From assembly GCA_050948785.1 (NCBI GenBank), contig JBMNEM010000006.1:164722-228721 (forward strand): a DNA stretch of 64,000 nt, in the 5' to 3' direction. The notes beneath the pieces are model-generated. The model was not told the origin of the DNA. It saw only the letters and a list, made by a program, of their open reading frames with translations, and did not search any database. The DNA is from Dethiobacteria bacterium (lineage in GTDB: Bacteria; Bacillota; Dethiobacteria; DTU022; UBA8154). The position numbers and the translations under genes are program-made. Below are positions 1-35,982 of this stretch, piece by piece (position 1 is the first letter of the stretch; every line of letters begins with the position of its first letter).

Positions 1-214
1 GCAACTGCGATAAAAACGCCGCCGCATTTATAAAAAAAGTTGTTAAGACGGTGCCTTCTCAGCTCAAACACCCCACTTTTTCCGGTTTGATGTATTATAT
101 GTAAACAGTGGAAAAAGGTTAAAAACTATTTACTTATTTTCAATCTACGGATATGGTATAATATAGGTCGTGATCGGTCCACGCTTCCTAAAACACCATG
201 AAAGGGTGAAAAAG

Positions 215-505
215 TTGAAAATTTCCCCGGAAGAGCTCAAAAATGCTGCCTGGGACGCCAGGATTGAGTTAACAGCAATAGAGGAAAAAGAGCTGCAGGA
301 AGAGGTTCAAGATTTTTTCAACCAGGCCAAACAACTGCAGGAAATTAATTTAGAGGAGACCGCGGCGACATATTACGGCCTGGAAGGGCAAAATATCCTG
401 CGTGAAGATATTATCCGTCCCTCCCTGCCACTGGAAGCATCCATGGCAAACGCCCCGGATACAGATGAATCTTGTTTCCTGGTCCCCAGAATCATTGAAG
501 AATAG
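215..505 (+). CDS. gatC: Asp/Glu-tRNA amidotransferase subunit C
   Basis: C-terminal LRED...ANAP...FLVPRI pattern; first gene before gatA/gatB; TTG start at 215 after GGGTG chosen over ORF-track start 170. Confidence 0.85.
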   Translation: MKISPEELKNAAWDARIELTAIEEKELQEEVQDFFNQAKQLQEINLEETAATYYGLEGQNILREDIIRPSLPLEASMANAPDTDESCFLVPRIIEE

Positions 506-534
506 AAAACTCCTTAAAGAGAGGAGGTTGTTTT

Positions 535-1989
535 ATGAATCTTACCAACCTTTCTGTACAGCAGATCGCCGCCAAAATAAACGAAAAGGAATTTTCCCCG
601 GCCGAACTGGGTGCAGCGCTCTCCCGCCGCGGCACGCATGCCCAAAAAGAGCTGACCCTTTTCATCTCTTTTGATCCACAAAGTATTGCCAGGGAAATAA
701 AGAGAATCGAGCAAAATGTTCAGGTTAAAGATAATCGCCTGCTAGGCGTACCTGTAGCCCTGGCCGATAATATTTCGACAGGTGACCAAAAAACAACCTG
801 TGCCTCCCGGCTACTGGCCTCTTACCAACCGCCTTTTGAAGCCCGCGTTGTCTCCTTGTTGAAAGAAAGCGGTGCTCTTTTAACCGGTAAAACAAATCTG
901 GAGGAATTTGGCCTGGGTTGTTCCGGAGAAAGTTCTTTTTTAAACCAGGTAAAAAACCCCTGGGATAAAAAGTACACCGCGGGCAGCGGTGCCGCGGCAG
1001 CCGTAGCAAGCGGCCTTACAACCCTGGCTCTTGCTTCTGATGCGCGCGGGGAGTTAAGACAAGCAGCCTCTTATTGCGGAATCATGGCCCTAAAACCCAC
1101 TTATGGCAGAATATCCCGCAAAGGACTGATCGACTGCGCTTCCTCCCTGGAGCAGCTTGGCATTTTGGCCCGGAGGGCCTCAGATCTGGCTCTAACTTTA
1201 CAGGTTCTTGCCGGTCCGGAGGCCGATAATCCTACCACACTGCCAACAGAGGCGCCCCCTTATGCAGATTTATTGGAAAAAATTTCAGAAAAACCACGGA
1301 TCGCCGTTCCTGCATGCTGGGATGAAGCACCATACCTGGAGGATGAAGTAAAAAAGAACTTCCAGGAACAGCTTGCCAAATTGGGTAAACTCGGTTTGGA
1401 GATAAACTTCGTTACCCTTCCTCATTTTCAATATGCTTATCTCGTTGCCACTATTATTTGCGCTGTAGAAGCTTTCTCCAATTTATCCAACTTGGATGGG
1501 GTGCGTTTTGGATACAGGAAGGAAGGAAAACACCTGCAGGAAATGTATATAAAAACTCGCAGCCAGGGCTTCAGCAGTAAACTGAAAAAATTTCTCACCT
1601 TTGGAGGGCTGCTCTCCACAGCAAAATACTATCATAATTACTTCCTGCAAGGACAAAAAATGCGCAGTATAATCAAAAAAGAACTGGAAGACTGCCTACA
1701 GGAAAACGAACTGCTCCTCACGCCCACAACACCATTTAAAGCAATACCGGCCGGCAGCCCCCTGAGCGGAAAGGAACTTCCTGATCCCGCCAGCTACTAT
1801 ACAGCGGCAGCCAACCTTACCGGTTTTCCTTCTTTAAGTTTTCCGATCAATACTGGCGGGTTGCCCTATGGCCTGCAGTTTATGGCCAAAAGGGAAAATG
1901 AGGTTATTTTATTGCAAGTGGCTTCTTTACTAGAAAAAGAAGATTCCATTAAATGGCCAAAATTTGCTCTTGAATTGCAGGAGGTGTAA
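535..1989 (+). CDS. gatA: Amidotransferase subunit A, amidase signature degenerate (predicted glutaminase-dead)
   Basis: GKTN, NPWD, KPTYGRISR, DGVRFG motifs and gatC-gatA-gatB synteny; catalytic Lys and Ser positions substituted (see findings). Confidence 0.9.
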   Translation: MNLTNLSVQQIAAKINEKEFSPAELGAALSRRGTHAQKELTLFISFDPQSIAREIKRIEQNVQVKDNRLLGVPVALADNISTGDQKTTCASRLLASYQPPFEARVVSLLKESGALLTGKTNLEEFGLGCSGESSFLNQVKNPWDKKYTAGSGAAAAVASGLTTLALASDARGELRQAASYCGIMALKPTYGRISRKGLIDCASSLEQLGILARRASDLALTLQVLAGPEADNPTTLPTEAPPYADLLEKISEKPRIAVPACWDEAPYLEDEVKKNFQEQLAKLGKLGLEINFVTLPHFQYAYLVATIICAVEAFSNLSNLDGVRFGYRKEGKHLQEMYIKTRSQGFSSKLKKFLTFGGLLSTAKYYHNYFLQGQKMRSIIKKELEDCLQENELLLTPTTPFKAIPAGSPLSGKELPDPASYYTAAANLTGFPSLSFPINTGGLPYGLQFMAKRENEVILLQVASLLEKEDSIKWPKFALELQEV

Positions 1990-1992
1990 CTA

Positions 1993-3435
1993 ATGTCTGC
2001 ATTTGAAGCAGTCATCGGCCTGGAAGTACACGTTGAACTTTTAACTCAAACCAAATTGTTCTGCAGCTGCAGCACAGCTTTTGGCGCCGTCCCCAACACG
2101 CAGGTTTGTCCTGTATGCTTGGGTTTGCCGGGAGGCACCACACCGGTTTTAAACAAAAAAGCAGTGGAATACGCCATAAAAACAGCTATGACTTTAAATT
2201 GTCAGGTTGTGGAAGAGATAACCTTTGACCGTAAAAACTACTTTTACGCTGATTTGCCCAACGGTTACCAAATAACGCAACACTTCCACCCTATGGGTAG
2301 TGGCGGCTATCTGTCCATAAATTTAAAAGAAGAAACAAAAAAAATTGGCATACATCAGATTCACCTGGAAGAAGATGCCGGCAAGATGGTCCATATGGGC
2401 GATATCCTTTCCACTCCTTTCAGCCGGGTGGACTTTAACCGTGCCAGTGTACCCCTGGTGGAAATTGTCACGGAGCCCGACATACACACACCGGAAGAGG
2501 CGAGGCTTTTCCTGCAAAAACTGCGCAATACACTGCTCTATATCGGTATTTCAGATTGCAAGATGGAAGAAGGCTCCATGCGCTGCGATGCCAACATCAG
2601 CCTGCGGCCTCTGGGAAGCAAAGAACTGGGTATCAAAACAGAGCTTAAAAATATGAATTCCTTCCGCGCTGTTTATCGGGGAATTGAATATGAGATTGAA
2701 AGACAATCCAACATTCTGCAAGAGGGTGGCGAAATTATTCCGCAAACCAGACATTGGGATGAAGAAAAAGGCGCCACCAAGTCCATGCGGGATAAGCTTT
2801 CGGAAAGTTATCGTTATTTCCCTGATCCTGTCCTGCCTCCTCTTAAAATCAGTCAAAAATGGCAGGAGGAGATCCGCCGTTCCATCCCGGAACTTCCCGA
2901 CTCCCGCTACGCCAGATTTACCCGGAATTATGCCTTACCGTCCTACGATGCCGAGGTTCTGACCTCCTCCCGGGACTTGGCTGATTATTATGAGCGCGCC
3001 CTCAGCACTTATCCAGAACACAAGAATTTAAGTAATTGGATAATGAGTGAACTGCTGGGATTACTAAACGCCAACAATATGGAGATCACGGCATGCAAAG
3101 TAAAACCCCAAGAACTGGGGAACCTTTTAAAACTGATTGACAAAGGTGTGATCAGCGGAAAAATCGCCAAAGCGGTTTTCGAGGAGATGTTTGTCACAGG
3201 AGAAAAACCGGGGACAATCATCGAGAAAAAAGGGCTTACACAGATCTCCGATGAGGAAACTCTCTTCAAAATCGTGGAAGCGGTGCTCGCCGCCAATCCC
3301 GGATCAGTGGAGGATTATCATAAAGGTAAAAATAAAGCACTGGGGTTTCTTGTAGGTCAAGTGATGAAAGAAACAAAAGGTAAAGCTAACCCACAGATGG
3401 TGAATAAGCTGTTGCGGGAAAAACTGGATAATTAA
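1993..3435 (+). CDS. gatB: Asp/Glu-tRNA amidotransferase subunit B
   Basis: IGLEVHVEL, FCSC/CPVC Zn ligands, RKNYFY, HLEEDAGK, EIVTEP, RCDANIS, YRYFP, C-terminal YqeY-like domain. Confidence 0.97.
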   Translation: MSAFEAVIGLEVHVELLTQTKLFCSCSTAFGAVPNTQVCPVCLGLPGGTTPVLNKKAVEYAIKTAMTLNCQVVEEITFDRKNYFYADLPNGYQITQHFHPMGSGGYLSINLKEETKKIGIHQIHLEEDAGKMVHMGDILSTPFSRVDFNRASVPLVEIVTEPDIHTPEEARLFLQKLRNTLLYIGISDCKMEEGSMRCDANISLRPLGSKELGIKTELKNMNSFRAVYRGIEYEIERQSNILQEGGEIIPQTRHWDEEKGATKSMRDKLSESYRYFPDPVLPPLKISQKWQEEIRRSIPELPDSRYARFTRNYALPSYDAEVLTSSRDLADYYERALSTYPEHKNLSNWIMSELLGLLNANNMEITACKVKPQELGNLLKLIDKGVISGKIAKAVFEEMFVTGEKPGTIIEKKGLTQISDEETLFKIVEAVLAANPGSVEDYHKGKNKALGFLVGQVMKETKGKANPQMVNKLLREKLDN

Positions 3436-3531
3436 AACTTCCCGGTAAGCGGATTCAGCATTCAACCCGGAAATATGGCGAATTAGTGCAAACTCGCGGT
3501 GGCGAAATTTCGAGTTCGCTACAATCGGGGC

Positions 3532-3569
3532 GGACTTTCACCCCATGCTACCGCCCATGCCGGGCACAC
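3532..3569 (-). mobile_element. 5' remnant of a group IIC-like intron
   Basis: Minus strand reads GTGTGCCCGGCATGGGCGGTAGCATGGGGTGAAAGTCC, resembling the group IIC 5' end, just downstream of a hairpin (3588-3619); no RT ORF or domain V seen. Confidence 0.6.
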
Positions 3570-3731: not shown

Positions 3732-3760
3732 TTGACGAAATTAAAAGCTTCAGCTATAAT
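3732..3760 (+). promoter_or_regulatory. sigma-A promoter of tRNA-Leu
   Basis: TTGACG-N17-TATAAT. Confidence 0.75.
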
Positions 3761-3816: not shown

Positions 3817-3902
3817 GCCCGAGTGTCGGAACAGGCAGACGAGACGGTCTCAAAAACCGTTGTCCTTTGGACGTGTGAGTTCGAGTCTCACCTCGGGCAC
3901 CA
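3817..3902 (+). tRNA. tRNA-Leu(CAA)
   Basis: Acceptor GCCCGAG/CTCGGGC, anticodon arm ACGGT-CTCAAAA-ACCGT, long variable arm, GTTCGAGTC T-loop, encoded CCA. Confidence 0.97.
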
Positions 3903-3916
3903 GCCATTTTAATTGG

Positions 3917-3957
3917 GGCTCACAAGGCTGGCCACCAGCTTATGGAGCCTTTTTTTA
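3917..3957 (+). terminator. Intrinsic terminator of tRNA-Leu
   Basis: GGCTC...GAGCC stem followed by T-run. Confidence 0.7.
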
Positions 3958-3962
3958 TTTAA

Positions 3963-4010
3963 ATCAACTAAAACCAACTCTCTTTTTAATTCTTCAATTC
4001 TTTTCAGCAT
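3963..4010 (-). pseudogene. Truncated copy of the 69-aa ORF at 7755-7964
   Basis: MLKRIEELKRELVLVD identical to the 7755-7964 N-terminus; homology stops at the tRNA-Leu terminator. Confidence 0.75.
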
Positions 4011-4171
4011 TTTTACCTTTGCCTTCCGGATATAAGATTGTGCATAGATTCTATATTAACAATATTTTTAAAACTCCGGGCCTTATTTCCCCCCGATAAA
4101 TCCGGGATCTTACAGCCCCCGCACACAGCCTCCACCACCCTGGCTCCGGTAAAACGCAAGCTTCATCAGCG

Positions 4172-4978
4172 TCAGCGTTGCATTTCAAGCCAATTCTTAT
4201 CCTCTTTTTCCAATTGACCCAATAAATACGGATTTAAAACCCTTAAATAGGTTCCTTTCATTCCCAAAGAATGTGTTTCTATAACCCCTGCACTTTTGAG
4301 CTTACGCAAAGCATTGACAATTACCGATCTGGTAATGTTAAGTTTATCAGCAATTTTGCTGGTCACAATCAGCCCTTCATCTGCATCCAATTCATTAAAT
4401 ACCCGTACCGCCGCTTCCAGCTCGGAATATGAAAGTGCTCCTATCGCCTGCTGCACAGTCATTTTATCCCTGATTTCTTTTTCATTTTTTTCAAACTTTA
4501 AATTTAAAATTTCTATCCCTGCAACTGTTGCCACTGTTTCCGCCAGAATTAAATCTCCGGTATCAAAACGCTTGATCGGACGGGTTAAAATTAATGTCCC
4601 CAATCTTTTATTCTGGCCTAAAATTGGAACTAAAATTGTAAATATATTTGTAAAAACACAGCTTTCTGATTGCATAAAAACACACTCATTATTTTTCTGT
4701 GTCAGGTTTATCTTGCTCCTATTTTCAATTCCATGCAACAAAGAATCTTTATAATTTTCCGGTAATTCCCCTTTTTTCAGGAAACCATCCATTAGTTCAC
4801 AGTCAAATTCATCCGTAAGCGCATACCTTAAAATTTTACCTTCGATATCAGTAATGTATACATTGGCATGGATAACATTTTTTAAAACCTCAATCGCCTC
4901 AAAAAGTTTAACCCCTTGTTCCGTTTGCAGTTTTTTACGAATAAAACGGGTTTTTTCCAGCAAAGAAGAAACAACCAA
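4172..4978 (-). CDS. codY: CodY-family transcriptional regulator, paralog 1
   Basis: LLEKTR N-terminus, GAF-like region, LSYSELEA, SKIAD..ITRSVIVNALRKL.SAGVIE..SLGMKGTY winged HTH. Confidence 0.92.
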   Translation of the reverse strand: MVVSSLLEKTRFIRKKLQTEQGVKLFEAIEVLKNVIHANVYITDIEGKILRYALTDEFDCELMDGFLKKGELPENYKDSLLHGIENRSKINLTQKNNECVFMQSESCVFTNIFTILVPILGQNKRLGTLILTRPIKRFDTGDLILAETVATVAGIEILNLKFEKNEKEIRDKMTVQQAIGALSYSELEAAVRVFNELDADEGLIVTSKIADKLNITRSVIVNALRKLKSAGVIETHSLGMKGTYLRVLNPYLLGQLEKEDKNWLEMQR

Positions 4979-34710: not shown

Positions 34711-35982
34711 TTGTCAAACCAGGCCAAAGAAAAAGTTAATACTTACGAGGTTGCCAAAAGGCGCCTGAAAAAAGCTACAGAAGAACTGGCTCTCCCGGCA
34801 AGCGTTTATGAGCGTTTAAAAGATTGTGATCGTGTCCTGGAAGCAGCCATCCCGGTGGAAATGGATGATGGTACACTACGTGTCTTCAAAGGCTACCGTG
34901 CCCAGCACAATAACGTTTTGGGACCGTACAAAGGAGGCGTTCGCTTCCACCCGGAGGTGGATCTGGATGAAGCAAAAGCCCTCTCCATCTGGATGACAAT
35001 CAAGTGTGCCGTAGCCCGGGTCCCCTTTGGCGGGGGTAAAGGAGCCGTCGCCTGTGATCCCCTGCAGATGTCTCCACAGGAAATCGAACGCCTCAGCCGT
35101 CAGTATATACGGTCCATGGCCCCCATTTTAGGCCCCAAAATAGATATTCCGGCACCGGATGTGAACACCAATCCCCAGGTCATGGCCTGGATGACTGACG
35201 AGTACTGCAACATTCGGGGGTACGATGATTTGGGCGTGATTACAGGCAAACCCCTGGATATGGGCGGCAGTGCCGGGAGGGAAACCGCTACCGGACGGGG
35301 CGTCATGTTCACTGTGCGTGAAGCGGCCAAAGTCAAAGGTCTTACACTGAAAAATGCAACTCTTGCCGTGCAGGGTTATGGCAATGTTGGTTCTGCCGCA
35401 GCCCGCTTTTTGGCCCAGGAAGGTTGCAAGCTGATTGCCGTGGCGGATATTTTCGGCGGTATCTACGATGAAAACGGCCTTGATGCAGAAGCGCTCTATC
35501 AATACTGCCGGGAAACAGGCACTGTCAAAGACTTTCCGGAAAGTAAAGGCAGCATCACAACAGAAGAACTTTTTGCTTTGGATTGTGAGATCATCGTTCC
35601 TGCTGCCATGGAGAACCAGATTACCCCGGAGGTAGCCCAAAACATCAAAGCCAAGATCATCGGTGAAGGGGCCAACGGGCCAACCACTCCCGAAGCGGAT
35701 GAGGTTTTGAAAGAAAAAGACATTTTTGTTGTTCCGGATATTCTGGCTAACAGCGGAGGTGTAGCCACCTCCTATTTTGAGTGGGTCCAGAATAACTATT
35801 CCTACTACTGGACAGAAGAAGAGGTCGGCAAACGCCTGGAACTGAAAATGGTCGAAGCCTTTAACCATGTTTATGATTACCAGCGCAATTTTAATAAAAA
35901 AATTACCATGCGGGAAGCGGCCTTCATGTATGCGCTGCAGCGCCTTGCAGATGCCATGAAAATAAGGGGTTGGATCAGATAA
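34711..35982 (+). CDS. gdhA: Glutamate dehydrogenase
   Basis: GP.KGG.RFHP, PFGGGKG, DIPAPD, QGYGNVG, EGANGP, PDILAN.GGV..SYFEW. Confidence 0.96.
   Translation: MSNQAKEKVNTYEVAKRRLKKATEELALPASVYERLKDCDRVLEAAIPVEMDDGTLRVFKGYRAQHNNVLGPYKGGVRFHPEVDLDEAKALSIWMTIKCAVARVPFGGGKGAVACDPLQMSPQEIERLSRQYIRSMAPILGPKIDIPAPDVNTNPQVMAWMTDEYCNIRGYDDLGVITGKPLDMGGSAGRETATGRGVMFTVREAAKVKGLTLKNATLAVQGYGNVGSAAARFLAQEGCKLIAVADIFGGIYDENGLDAEALYQYCRETGTVKDFPESKGSITTEELFALDCEIIVPAAMENQITPEVAQNIKAKIIGEGANGPTTPEADEVLKEKDIFVVPDILANSGGVATSYFEWVQNNYSYYWTEEEVGKRLELKMVEAFNHVYDYQRNFNKKITMREAAFMYALQRLADAMKIRGWIR

Follow-up and report, generated by a model that had tools for sequence, protein, structure and literature searches.

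The 64,000-nucleotide stretch analysed here (the window; positions 164,722 to 228,721 of contig JBMNEM010000006.1, assembly GCA_050948785.1, from a Dethiobacteria bacterium) carries near its beginning an operon which probably encodes a paralogous form of the tRNA-dependent amidotransferase GatCAB, whose glutaminase subunit, GatA, has turned into a pseudo-enzyme. We consider it likely that this complex is ammonia-dependent, with GatA kept as a scaffold and possibly as the site where ammonium enters, a reading that we reached by elimination. The analysed genome (G000) is a draft bin of 10 contigs, 93.94% complete, and was compared within a sample of 40 related genomes of a Dethiobacteria-like order, G000 counted, all of them draft bins. 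The operon occupies bases 170-3435, its three genes running in one direction; we refer to the triad-less paralogue set as GatA2, GatB2 and GatC2 and to the canonical set as GatA1 and GatB1. Its genes are:

215..505, + strand: gatC2, the small GatC subunit (PF02686 GatC, E 1e-11; TIGR00135, 51.6 bits versus a cut-off of 47.1)
535..1989, + strand: gatA2, an amidase-signature fold without the Ser-cisSer-Lys triad (484 amino acids, frame intact)
1993..3435, + strand: gatB2, the kinase/transamidase subunit, apparently fully canonical, with a YqeY-like tail (PF02934, E 2.2e-115; PF02637, E 8.4e-57)

The open reading frame of gatA2 is intact, as an earlier note made from the sequence had stated, and its product (P0001) matches the Pfam Amidase family PF01425 end to end, over model positions 5-445 of 445 (E 8.5e-92). 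The top NCBIfam model is gatA, TIGR00132, at 383.3 bits, a value below the curated cut-off of 481.1, and the canonical GatA paralogues of the relatives reach 512-646 bits with the same model. The gene sits between gatC and gatB as in GatCAB operons, an order that is kept in the relatives. A residue-level HMMER alignment of GatA2 to the solved GatA chains 3h0l_A and 3al0_A bore out the three active-site changes that the earlier note had read from the letters:

763..765, + strand: codon of A77, at the position of the triad Lys (canonical a(v/i)kdni versus ALADNI)
976..993, + strand: shortened Gly/Ser loop T148-A153 (TAGSGA), with 3 residues fewer than the canonical PGGSSGGS, which bears the cis-Ser
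1051..1053, + strand: codon of E173, at the position of the nucleophile Ser, inside GELRQ(A/S)A (canonical sdtggs(i/v)rqp versus SDARGELRQA)

In the loop, the canonical pggssggsaa is aligned to TAG-S--GAA in GatA2, and this 3-residue deletion is common to all 30 GatA2 proteins of the relatives, which fall into two types, D1 and D2 (see below). Position 77 is unconserved among the 21 relatives of the D1 type (A in 11, G in 6, S in 2, E in 1 and D in 1); position 173 is Glu in all 21 of them and in 89% of 76 D1 sequences, with a few D1 members having G, A or N. Two other segments are altered too, the canonical SNLARYDGVRY reading SNLSNLDGVRF and KRRIML reading LKKFLTF, so that the changes from RYDG to NLDG and from RRI to KKF, also reported in the earlier note, are confirmed. 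The three active-site changes recur in 68 of 120 clusters and in 21 of the 40 genomes, and the contigs of 4 metatranscriptome runs are identical to the window here; they are therefore not a product of chance or of sequencing error. A triad rebuilt at shifted positions, a possibility that the earlier note had raised against itself, was looked for and rejected: the loop's sole Ser (S151) is 72% conserved, some relatives having N, H, K or C there, residue 77 varies, and the triad is not restored.

The losses extend to the surroundings of the active site. We took the 140 columns which are at least 90% conserved in 77 canonical GatA and scored them in the 76 D1-type sequences; 73 are kept, 16 have switched to another conserved residue and 51 are unconserved. 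Switched columns include S to E173, R to N319, R to F353, Y to A305, S to A153 and P to A149, whereas K77, T170, G171, R352 and D420 are among the unconserved ones; F353 occupies the place of a conserved canonical R in 88% of D1, and seven columns are newly conserved in GatA2. The lost columns fall in the triad motifs and in other conserved motifs of canonical GatA. We take the columns of R353, D420 and Y305 to be contacts of the substrate, glutamine, and Arg358 and Asp425 of Staphylococcus aureus GatA are presumably glutamine contacts as well. An AlphaFold2 (AF2) model of GatA2, built on 38 clade members, had a predicted local distance difference test score (pLDDT) of 91.6 and a predicted template modelling score (pTM) of 0.93, and by Foldseek it superposes on the GatA chains 3h0l_A, 4wj3_A and 2df4_A with a TM score of 0.92. 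Judged from these alignments and from the model, GatA2 is a protein in which the fold appears retained and the catalytic residues gone.

The 120 nearest clusters were taken from a collection of 5.8 billion proteins. Counting the query, 68 of them combine the short loop with loss of Lys and Ser, down to about 41% identity, and in most of those 68 rows the old nucleophile site reads G-E-L-R-Q. Source records name the clade members 'amidase family protein' or GatA and assign them to Bacillota, Dethiobacteria and 'Candidatus Contubernalis alkaliaceticus'. When 1.84 billion representatives were searched with a profile of the clade, the first 8 clusters (50% identity) were followed by a drop from 741 to 485 bits, the canonical plateau lying near 460 bits; given this gap in score, the triad-less family is small. 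A search for loci with the D1 alignment drew on patterns that canonical GatA also has, and most of the 80 loci that it gave are ordinary GatA.

The ratio of nonsynonymous to synonymous substitution rates (dN/dS) of gatA2 was 0.24, 0.17 and 0.19 in the three pairs with unsaturated dS; for comparison, gatA1 gave 0.10-0.16 and gatB2, also in three unsaturated pairs, 0.055-0.089. The gatA2 gene is under purifying selection, somewhat relaxed, and gatB2 is as constrained as any GatB. A decaying pseudogene, or a copy evolving neutrally as the earlier note had put it, was accordingly considered and discarded, being contradicted by the intact frame, by a dN/dS of about 0.2 and by the conserved clade into which the dead variant falls when mapped over its relatives.

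About 15 further GatA-like clusters outside D1 are without the Lys, the Ser or part of the loop, among them P0131, P0138, P0140, P0148, P0154, P0171, P0181, P0251, P0257, P0261 and P0085. One of these clusters is named GatA (Firmicutes bacterium) and another 'amidase family protein' (Christensenellales bacterium); in P0085, both K and S are changed to A and the loop deletion is absent. Loss of the GatA triad may have had several origins.

The two partner genes look ordinary. The listed frame of gatC2 begins with GTG at 170, and its probable start is the TTG at 215 (MKISPEEL...), placed near this position by alignment to the GatC2 of 21 relatives; an RNA contig of the run labelled X1 begins at 177. 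GatB2 scores above the GatB equivalogs (NF004012, 679.7 versus a cut-off of 338; TIGR00133, 601.7 versus 314.8) and aligns to 3h0l_B with E 2.6e-167. The HVEL, CxC...CPVC and RKNYFY motifs, which the earlier note had described as kept, are all there in this alignment, together with LEEDAGK and EIVTEPD, and 110 of the 147 columns conserved in GatB1 are retained.

This operon appears to be the only route to Gln-tRNA and Asn-tRNA in G000. The whole assembly has 1 amidase-family match and 1 GatB match, and a tblastn search with the canonical GatA1 and GatB1 of relative G009 gave matches confined to the operon in the window. No sequence of the assembly passed the GlnRS or AsnRS cut-off, where only GluRS, AspRS and LysRS-like matches were obtained, and the genome carries genes for tRNA-Gln(UUG) and tRNA-Asn(GUU). 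The second gatA or gatB, the glnS and the asnS that the earlier note had thought worth searching for are thus not found in the assembly. The genus as a whole shows the same: all 4 genomes (87-96% complete) have one gatB, of the GatB2 (B2) type; the 3 genomes with a gatA have the dead type only; and no canonical copy was found in any of them. In genus g4, 3 of 3 genomes likewise have just one gatB, which is of the B2 type, and only a dead gatA. Since a single B2-type gatB recurs in the 4 genomes of one genus and in the 3 of the other, absence through incomplete assembly is unlikely.

Over the 40 genomes, both operons, canonical and dead, were found in 18, with each gatA beside its own gatB; 9 have only the canonical gatA1-gatB1; 12 have only the dead form (G000, G002, G003, G006, G008, G012, G017, G022, G024, G026, G030 and G032); and G001 is untyped, a contig end adjoining its gatB2. 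GlnRS passed the cut-off in G007, G014, G024 and G034 only, with a fragment in G032, and AsnRS in G034 only. Neither synthetase was found in 10 of the 12 dead-only genomes, G000 among them, nor in any of the 4 genomes of its genus. Because these dead-only genomes show no GlnRS or AsnRS, the complex with the dead GatA would have to make both Gln-tRNA and Asn-tRNA.

The dead operon is an old paralogue, present side by side with a canonical gatCAB in many of the relatives. Its D1 type occurs in 21 genomes of families f1, f2 and f4; A, G, S, E or D takes the place of the Lys, and the nucleophile position has Glu in 21 of 21. The D2 type occurs in 9 genomes of families f3 and f5 and has the same 3-residue deletion; 8 of these 9 retain the Lys, and at the nucleophile position S stands in 3, G in 3, A in 2 and E in 1. 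The GatA tree gave D1 (30 rows) and D2 (9 rows) a Shimodaira-Hasegawa-like approximate likelihood-ratio support (SH-aLRT) of 100 each, and constraining them together cost 1.89 log-likelihood units and was not rejected by the approximately unbiased (AU) test (p 0.448). The 31 GatB2 rows are monophyletic in the GatB tree, with SH-aLRT 98. Since GatB2 is united in this tree and the joining of D1 and D2 is not rejected, the dead operon probably arose once, with the loop deletion coming first. The order gatC2-gatA2-gatB2 is kept at every locus that is not cut by a contig end, and no conserved neighbour beyond these three genes was found around the dead operon at 31 loci. The co-inheritance of GatA2 with GatB2 and GatC2, like the 73 canonical columns that GatA2 retains, lends indirect support to a putative complex of the three.

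We then considered the supply of glutamine and ammonia. Glutamine synthetase (GS, PF00120) was not found in G000 in a search which 14 of 14 control genomes matched, and the GS of two family mates, used as tblastn queries, gave no match there either. Over the sample, the search for GS gave nothing in 18 of the 40 genomes, a group to which 9 of the 12 dead-only genomes belong, and GOGAT (PF01645) was found in 0 of these 18, G000 included. G000 shows no glutaminase or asparaginase either. In the 5 dead-only genomes searched, neither GlsA glutaminase nor asparaginase/GatD was found, and glutamate dehydrogenase is present in all 5. In G000 its gene lies in the window:

35263-35970 (G000:C6:199984-200691), + strand: glutamate dehydrogenase domain (PF00208, E 1.3e-80, 440-amino-acid frame)

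As neither GS nor GOGAT was found in this genome, ammonia is probably assimilated through this glutamate dehydrogenase.

Loss of glutaminase sites, as far as sequences can tell, extends beyond GatA2 to other amidotransferases, alongside the loss of GS itself. Three of them in G000, all outside the window, have lost their nucleophile Cys:

G000:C1:101520-102101, - strand: CarA, nucleophile Cys changed to Ser (GLSLGH; locus L037/L196)
G000:C8:7496-9034, + strand: GuaA, nucleophile Cys of the glutamine amidotransferase (GATase) domain changed to Gly (GIGGGMQ; locus L039/L166)
G000:C3:24525-26348, + strand: GlmS, Cys1 changed to Ser (MSGIVGY versus MCGIVGY; locus L046/L228)

The top Protein Data Bank match of the G000 CarA is 1c30_B, the chain of the Escherichia coli C269S mutant. 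The CarA Cys is lost in 12 of the 30 genomes examined, that is, in 11 of 13 GS-less versus 1 of 17 GS-holding genomes, and it has become Gly in 11 relatives. Among the 26 genomes whose GuaA was examined, the triad is disrupted in 7 (G000, G001, G006, G017, G024, G026 and G032), by five different substitutions (C to G, C to D, H to C, H to R and H to N); these are 6 dead-only genomes plus G001, and none of the 18 genomes with canonical gatA1 is among them. Ten more genomes, all GS-less, have a GuaA frame of 315-394 amino acids in which no GATase domain was matched. Cys1 of GlmS is Ser in 5 of 27 genomes (G000, G001, G012, G021 and G026), with two different Ser codons, that of G012 being the one that differs. 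The NadE of G000 is of the short, NH3-type form only (264-amino-acid frame).

Some further observations on these enzymes were made in passing. Family f5 has a second GuaA paralogue (L192 in G035, L193 in G037, L194 in G039 and L195 in G031), whose GATase is without the Cys (GIGYG, ALGYG, AMGYG) and without the HPE motif; it stands beside a canonical GuaA in G031, G037 and G039, a two-paralogue pattern like that of GatA1 and GatA2. The sole GlmS-like match of G036 (G036:C1:12299-13258, + strand) is a 373-amino-acid frame covering model positions 271-598, the isomerase half without the glutaminase domain, and in G006 no GlmS passed the cut-off. At G000:C6:80658-81017 (+ strand), outside the window, there is an asparagine-synthetase-like frame of 630 amino acids that starts MSGFCGIF, so that the usual N-terminal Cys lies four residues beyond the Met.

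The complex has no glutaminase, and the searches gave neither another enzyme that could supply NH3 nor a glutamine synthetase; free ammonia is left as the donor, and we infer on these grounds the use of ammonia, the scaffold role and the role of E173. The scaffold GatA with direct use of ammonia that the earlier note had proposed is in this way supported by elimination. The sequence of events would be as follows. GatB2 would bind the mischarged tRNA and phosphorylate the side-chain carboxylate of Glu-tRNAGln or Asp-tRNAAsn, and would then amidate it with NH3 drawn from free ammonia instead of from glutamine hydrolysis in GatA. GatA2 and GatC2 would be kept as the structural partners that GatB needs for assembly; GatC is described as aiding the folding of GatA and its binding to GatB, and the tunnel of the amidotransferase (AdT) is thought to conduct ammonium through protonation and deprotonation (both in the available part of PMC2330236). 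Without the bulky Lys and three loop residues, and with the conserved carboxylate of E173, the old pocket would be wider and may draw in NH4+ and hand NH3/NH4+ to the GatA-to-GatB tunnel. That the E173 pocket is the ammonium entry into this tunnel is a tentative idea; the proposal would give a reason why E173 is conserved and position 77 is free to vary.

Where a genome has two operons, the dead one would save glutamine, along with the ATP that GS consumes, whenever ammonia is plentiful, and its presence would then permit the loss of GatA1 and of GS in several lineages. It is possible, though we would place no great reliance on it, that several lineages have abandoned glutamine as a nitrogen carrier altogether: ammonia assimilated by glutamate dehydrogenase would feed the amidotransferases, Gln and Asn would be made only on tRNA, the E173 pocket would capture ammonium, and the ATP-sparing dead operon would have enabled the loss of GS.

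Several points weigh against an ammonia-dependent GatCAB with a dead scaffold. The related genomes are not independent samples, and the clade is not uniformly dead, since the D2 sister group retains the Lys in all but one of its members and the Ser in a third of them, so that some D2 members might keep weak hydrolysis. G000 itself is not uniformly glutamine-free: its PurF (...MEEA|CGIFG), its large PurL (GICNGFQ) and its PyrG (GFCLGMH) retain the nucleophile Cys, and because they do, glutamine may still be available, for instance by uptake. The dead-only genome G022 has an intact GuaA triad, G012 and G019 have the CarA Cys, and the dead-only G024, G026 and G032 do have GS; five GS-less genomes (G021, G025, G028, G036 and G038) hold canonical GatA1 only, and GS loss alone therefore does not require a dead GatA. 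A purely structural role for GatA2 leaves the strong conservation of E173 and of 'GELRQ' unexplained. Finally, the known ammonia-driven activity was obtained at 20 mM NH4Cl according to the accessible text of PMC4027206, and efficiency in the cell is a separate matter.

Four other explanations compete with the one we favour. GatA2 could be a dead scaffold on which an unlinked glutaminase or amidase docks to deliver ammonia, in the manner of GatD or of separate GATase subunits; the tunnel architecture of AdT would permit another source of ammonia, as far as the accessible text of PMC2330236 goes, and PurF, PurL and PyrG keep working-looking glutaminase sites, so hydrolysis of glutamine is not gone from the cell. 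The earlier note had left room for such a donor, and yet the search for one returned no GlsA, no asparaginase, no other amidase and no conserved neighbour: the 31 loci and the lone amidase-family match of G000 offer no partner, its 3 class-I GATase matches are all within CarA, PyrG and GuaA, the five dead-only genomes searched have neither GlsA nor asparaginase/GatD, and no glutamine synthetase was found that would feed a partner, which leaves a docking donor improbable. Nor do we give more than a slim chance to GatA2 being a hydrolase still, by some non-canonical chemistry (e.g. with Glu173 as base or nucleophile) or on a different amide donor. The strong conservation of E173 and GELRQ suggests a function at the old active site, and D2 relatives keep the Lys and some of them the Ser; against this, position 77 varies among A, G, S, E and D, the loop of the cis-Ser has its deletion, the columns of canonical R353, D420 and Y305 are replaced or unconserved, and certain D1 members have G, A or N in place of E173. 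We know of no amidase-signature enzyme that works without the triad.

A different objection is that the complex has another job, either a different tRNA- or ATP-dependent amidation or the regulation of GatB2 by a GatA2 that senses a metabolite, which implies that dead-only organisms form Gln-tRNA and Asn-tRNA by an unrecognised way. Paralogues often diverge, GatA2 has its 7 newly conserved columns, and the coexistence of two operons in 18 genomes needs a reason; nevertheless GatB2 keeps 110 of the 147 GatB1 columns and the motifs of 3h0l_B and lies far over the equivalog cut-off, and no alternative route was found in dead-only genomes, all of which makes another job very improbable. Hardly any weight goes to the dead operon being redundant or regulatory, with a canonical gatCAB or GlnRS plus AsnRS hidden in an unassembled part. 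G000 is, to be sure, 93.94% complete and 18 of 40 relatives hold both operons, but the genus has one B2-type gatB and no canonical gatA in 4 of 4 genomes, the same is true of 3 of 3 genomes of g4 plus G008, G012, G026, G030 and G032, GlnRS and AsnRS were found in 0 of the 4 genomes of the genus, and tblastn with the G009 GatA1 and GatB1 finds only the operon of the window.

The window is also represented in environmental sequence data. The stretch is present in 20 public runs, 6 of them recorded as RNA, and contigs from 4 metatranscriptome runs cover the operon and are identical to the window over gatA2. Those of run X1 (177-504 and 475-3542) have 0 differences to the window, and contigs of X1, X17 and X18, from three studies, end at 3540-3543, about 105 bases past the gatB stop; RNA contig cover is absent at 1-140 and 3921-4200, and these parts were left out of the evidence. 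A simple terminator scan found no site at the contig ends near 3540. These contigs fit a gatC-gatA-gatB transcript, only a hint of which they provide, and a point to be set against even this is that DNA can be present among the contigs of RNA libraries. Rfam gave no match at E <= 0.1 in the operon or in about 0.9 kb upstream, hence neither a T-box nor any other known leader, and the 0.9 kb or so 5' of gatC2 (G000:C6:163966-164935, reaching window positions 1-214) has no open reading frame of at least 100 amino acids. Downstream of gatB, the only feature found is a tRNA gene:

3817-3902, + strand: tRNA-Leu(CAA)

A strong promoter-like site (3732-3760, 11/12 matches) precedes this tRNA.

High pH or high total ammonium gives high free NH3 (pKa ~9.25). 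The labels of the runs which hold the stretch are biogas fermenter, bioreactor, sludge or anaerobic digester, in agreement with the ammonium-rich anaerobic habitat that the earlier note had imagined. Cultured members of the class are described as soda-lake alkaliphiles in the available text of PMC10376724 and PMC5609068, and Dethiobacteraceae are cited among the syntrophic acetate oxidisers of digesters in that of PMC12663870.

The operon resembles canonical GatCAB (Aquifex aeolicus 3H0L, Staphylococcus aureus 2DF4/2F2A, Thermotoga maritima 3AL0) in its genes and their order, in the GatA fold, in a near-canonical GatB and in its expected role in organisms without GlnRS or AsnRS. Unlike those systems, GatA2 is without the Lys, the cis-Ser and the nucleophile Ser, the columns of its pocket are replaced or unconserved, and it falls under the gatA cut-off, in a clade apart that has a GatB and a GatC to itself. 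By its sequence the system is a GatCAB, but one in which the glutaminase triad, a defining feature of GatA, has been lost. Mutants of the GatA serine of Streptococcus pyogenes, reportedly the work of Harpel et al. in 2002, are said to carry out ammonia-driven transamidation in vitro. For yeast GatFAB, the accessible part of PMC4027206 describes transamidation with 20 mM NH4Cl when the glutaminase is bypassed, and a higher rate when the GatA site was disturbed. Such ammonia-driven AdTs belong to laboratory conditions or engineered mutants, whereas here the loss is natural, old and conserved, and would concern the organism's only AdT.

Comparable in principle are carbamoyl-phosphate synthetase I (5DOT, 6UEL) and the E. 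coli CarA C269S mutant (1C30), in which an inactive glutaminase module is kept structurally and free ammonia is used; the CarA of G000 bears the very Cys to Ser change of 1C30, and carbamoyl-phosphate synthetase I presumably has Ser at that CarA nucleophile site too. Carbamoyl-phosphate synthetase I differs from GatA2 in being built on a class-I GATase and not on an amidase-signature protein. Glutamine-using and ammonia-using forms of NAD synthetase are distributed by lineage, according to the available text of PMC3376133; in NH3-type NadE the glutaminase domain is absent, whereas in GatA2 it is retained, dead. Tse8, a secreted Pseudomonas toxin, is presented in the accessible text of bioRxiv 10.1101/733030 as an amidase-signature protein that targets GatCAB. 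It is GatA-like (PDB 6TE4) and, as GatA2, linked to GatCAB, but the similarity is very weak (E 2e-4) and Tse8 is not an operon-encoded subunit.

GatCAB is described as glutamine-dependent, its glutaminase and transamidase being coupled via a gated tunnel (PMC2330236, available part). In the literature covered, with subscription journals and supplements outside its scope, no natural triad-less GatA or obligately ammonia-dependent GatCAB is described, and the genome papers of 'Ca. Contubernalis alkaliaceticus' and Dethiobacter alkaliphilus make no mention of glutamine, ammoni- or amidotransferase. The present annotation is no more explicit, NCBI naming these proteins merely 'amidase family protein', and the finding would be relevant to annotation as well as to metabolic models.

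If an ammonia-dependent GatCAB is what this operon encodes, the tRNA-dependent route to Gln and Asn can run in vivo on ammonia alone, and the complex would offer a natural case in which to follow the entry of ammonia into the tunnel and its passage there. It would also remove, in these organisms, the link between the glutamine pool and translation that is often invoked for the persistence of the indirect pathway. The parallel loss of GS, of GOGAT and of the nucleophile residues in CarA, GuaA and GlmS suggests a cell whose nitrogen metabolism is geared to places of high free ammonia, such as digesters and soda lakes, and an economy based on ammonia would save one ATP per amide.

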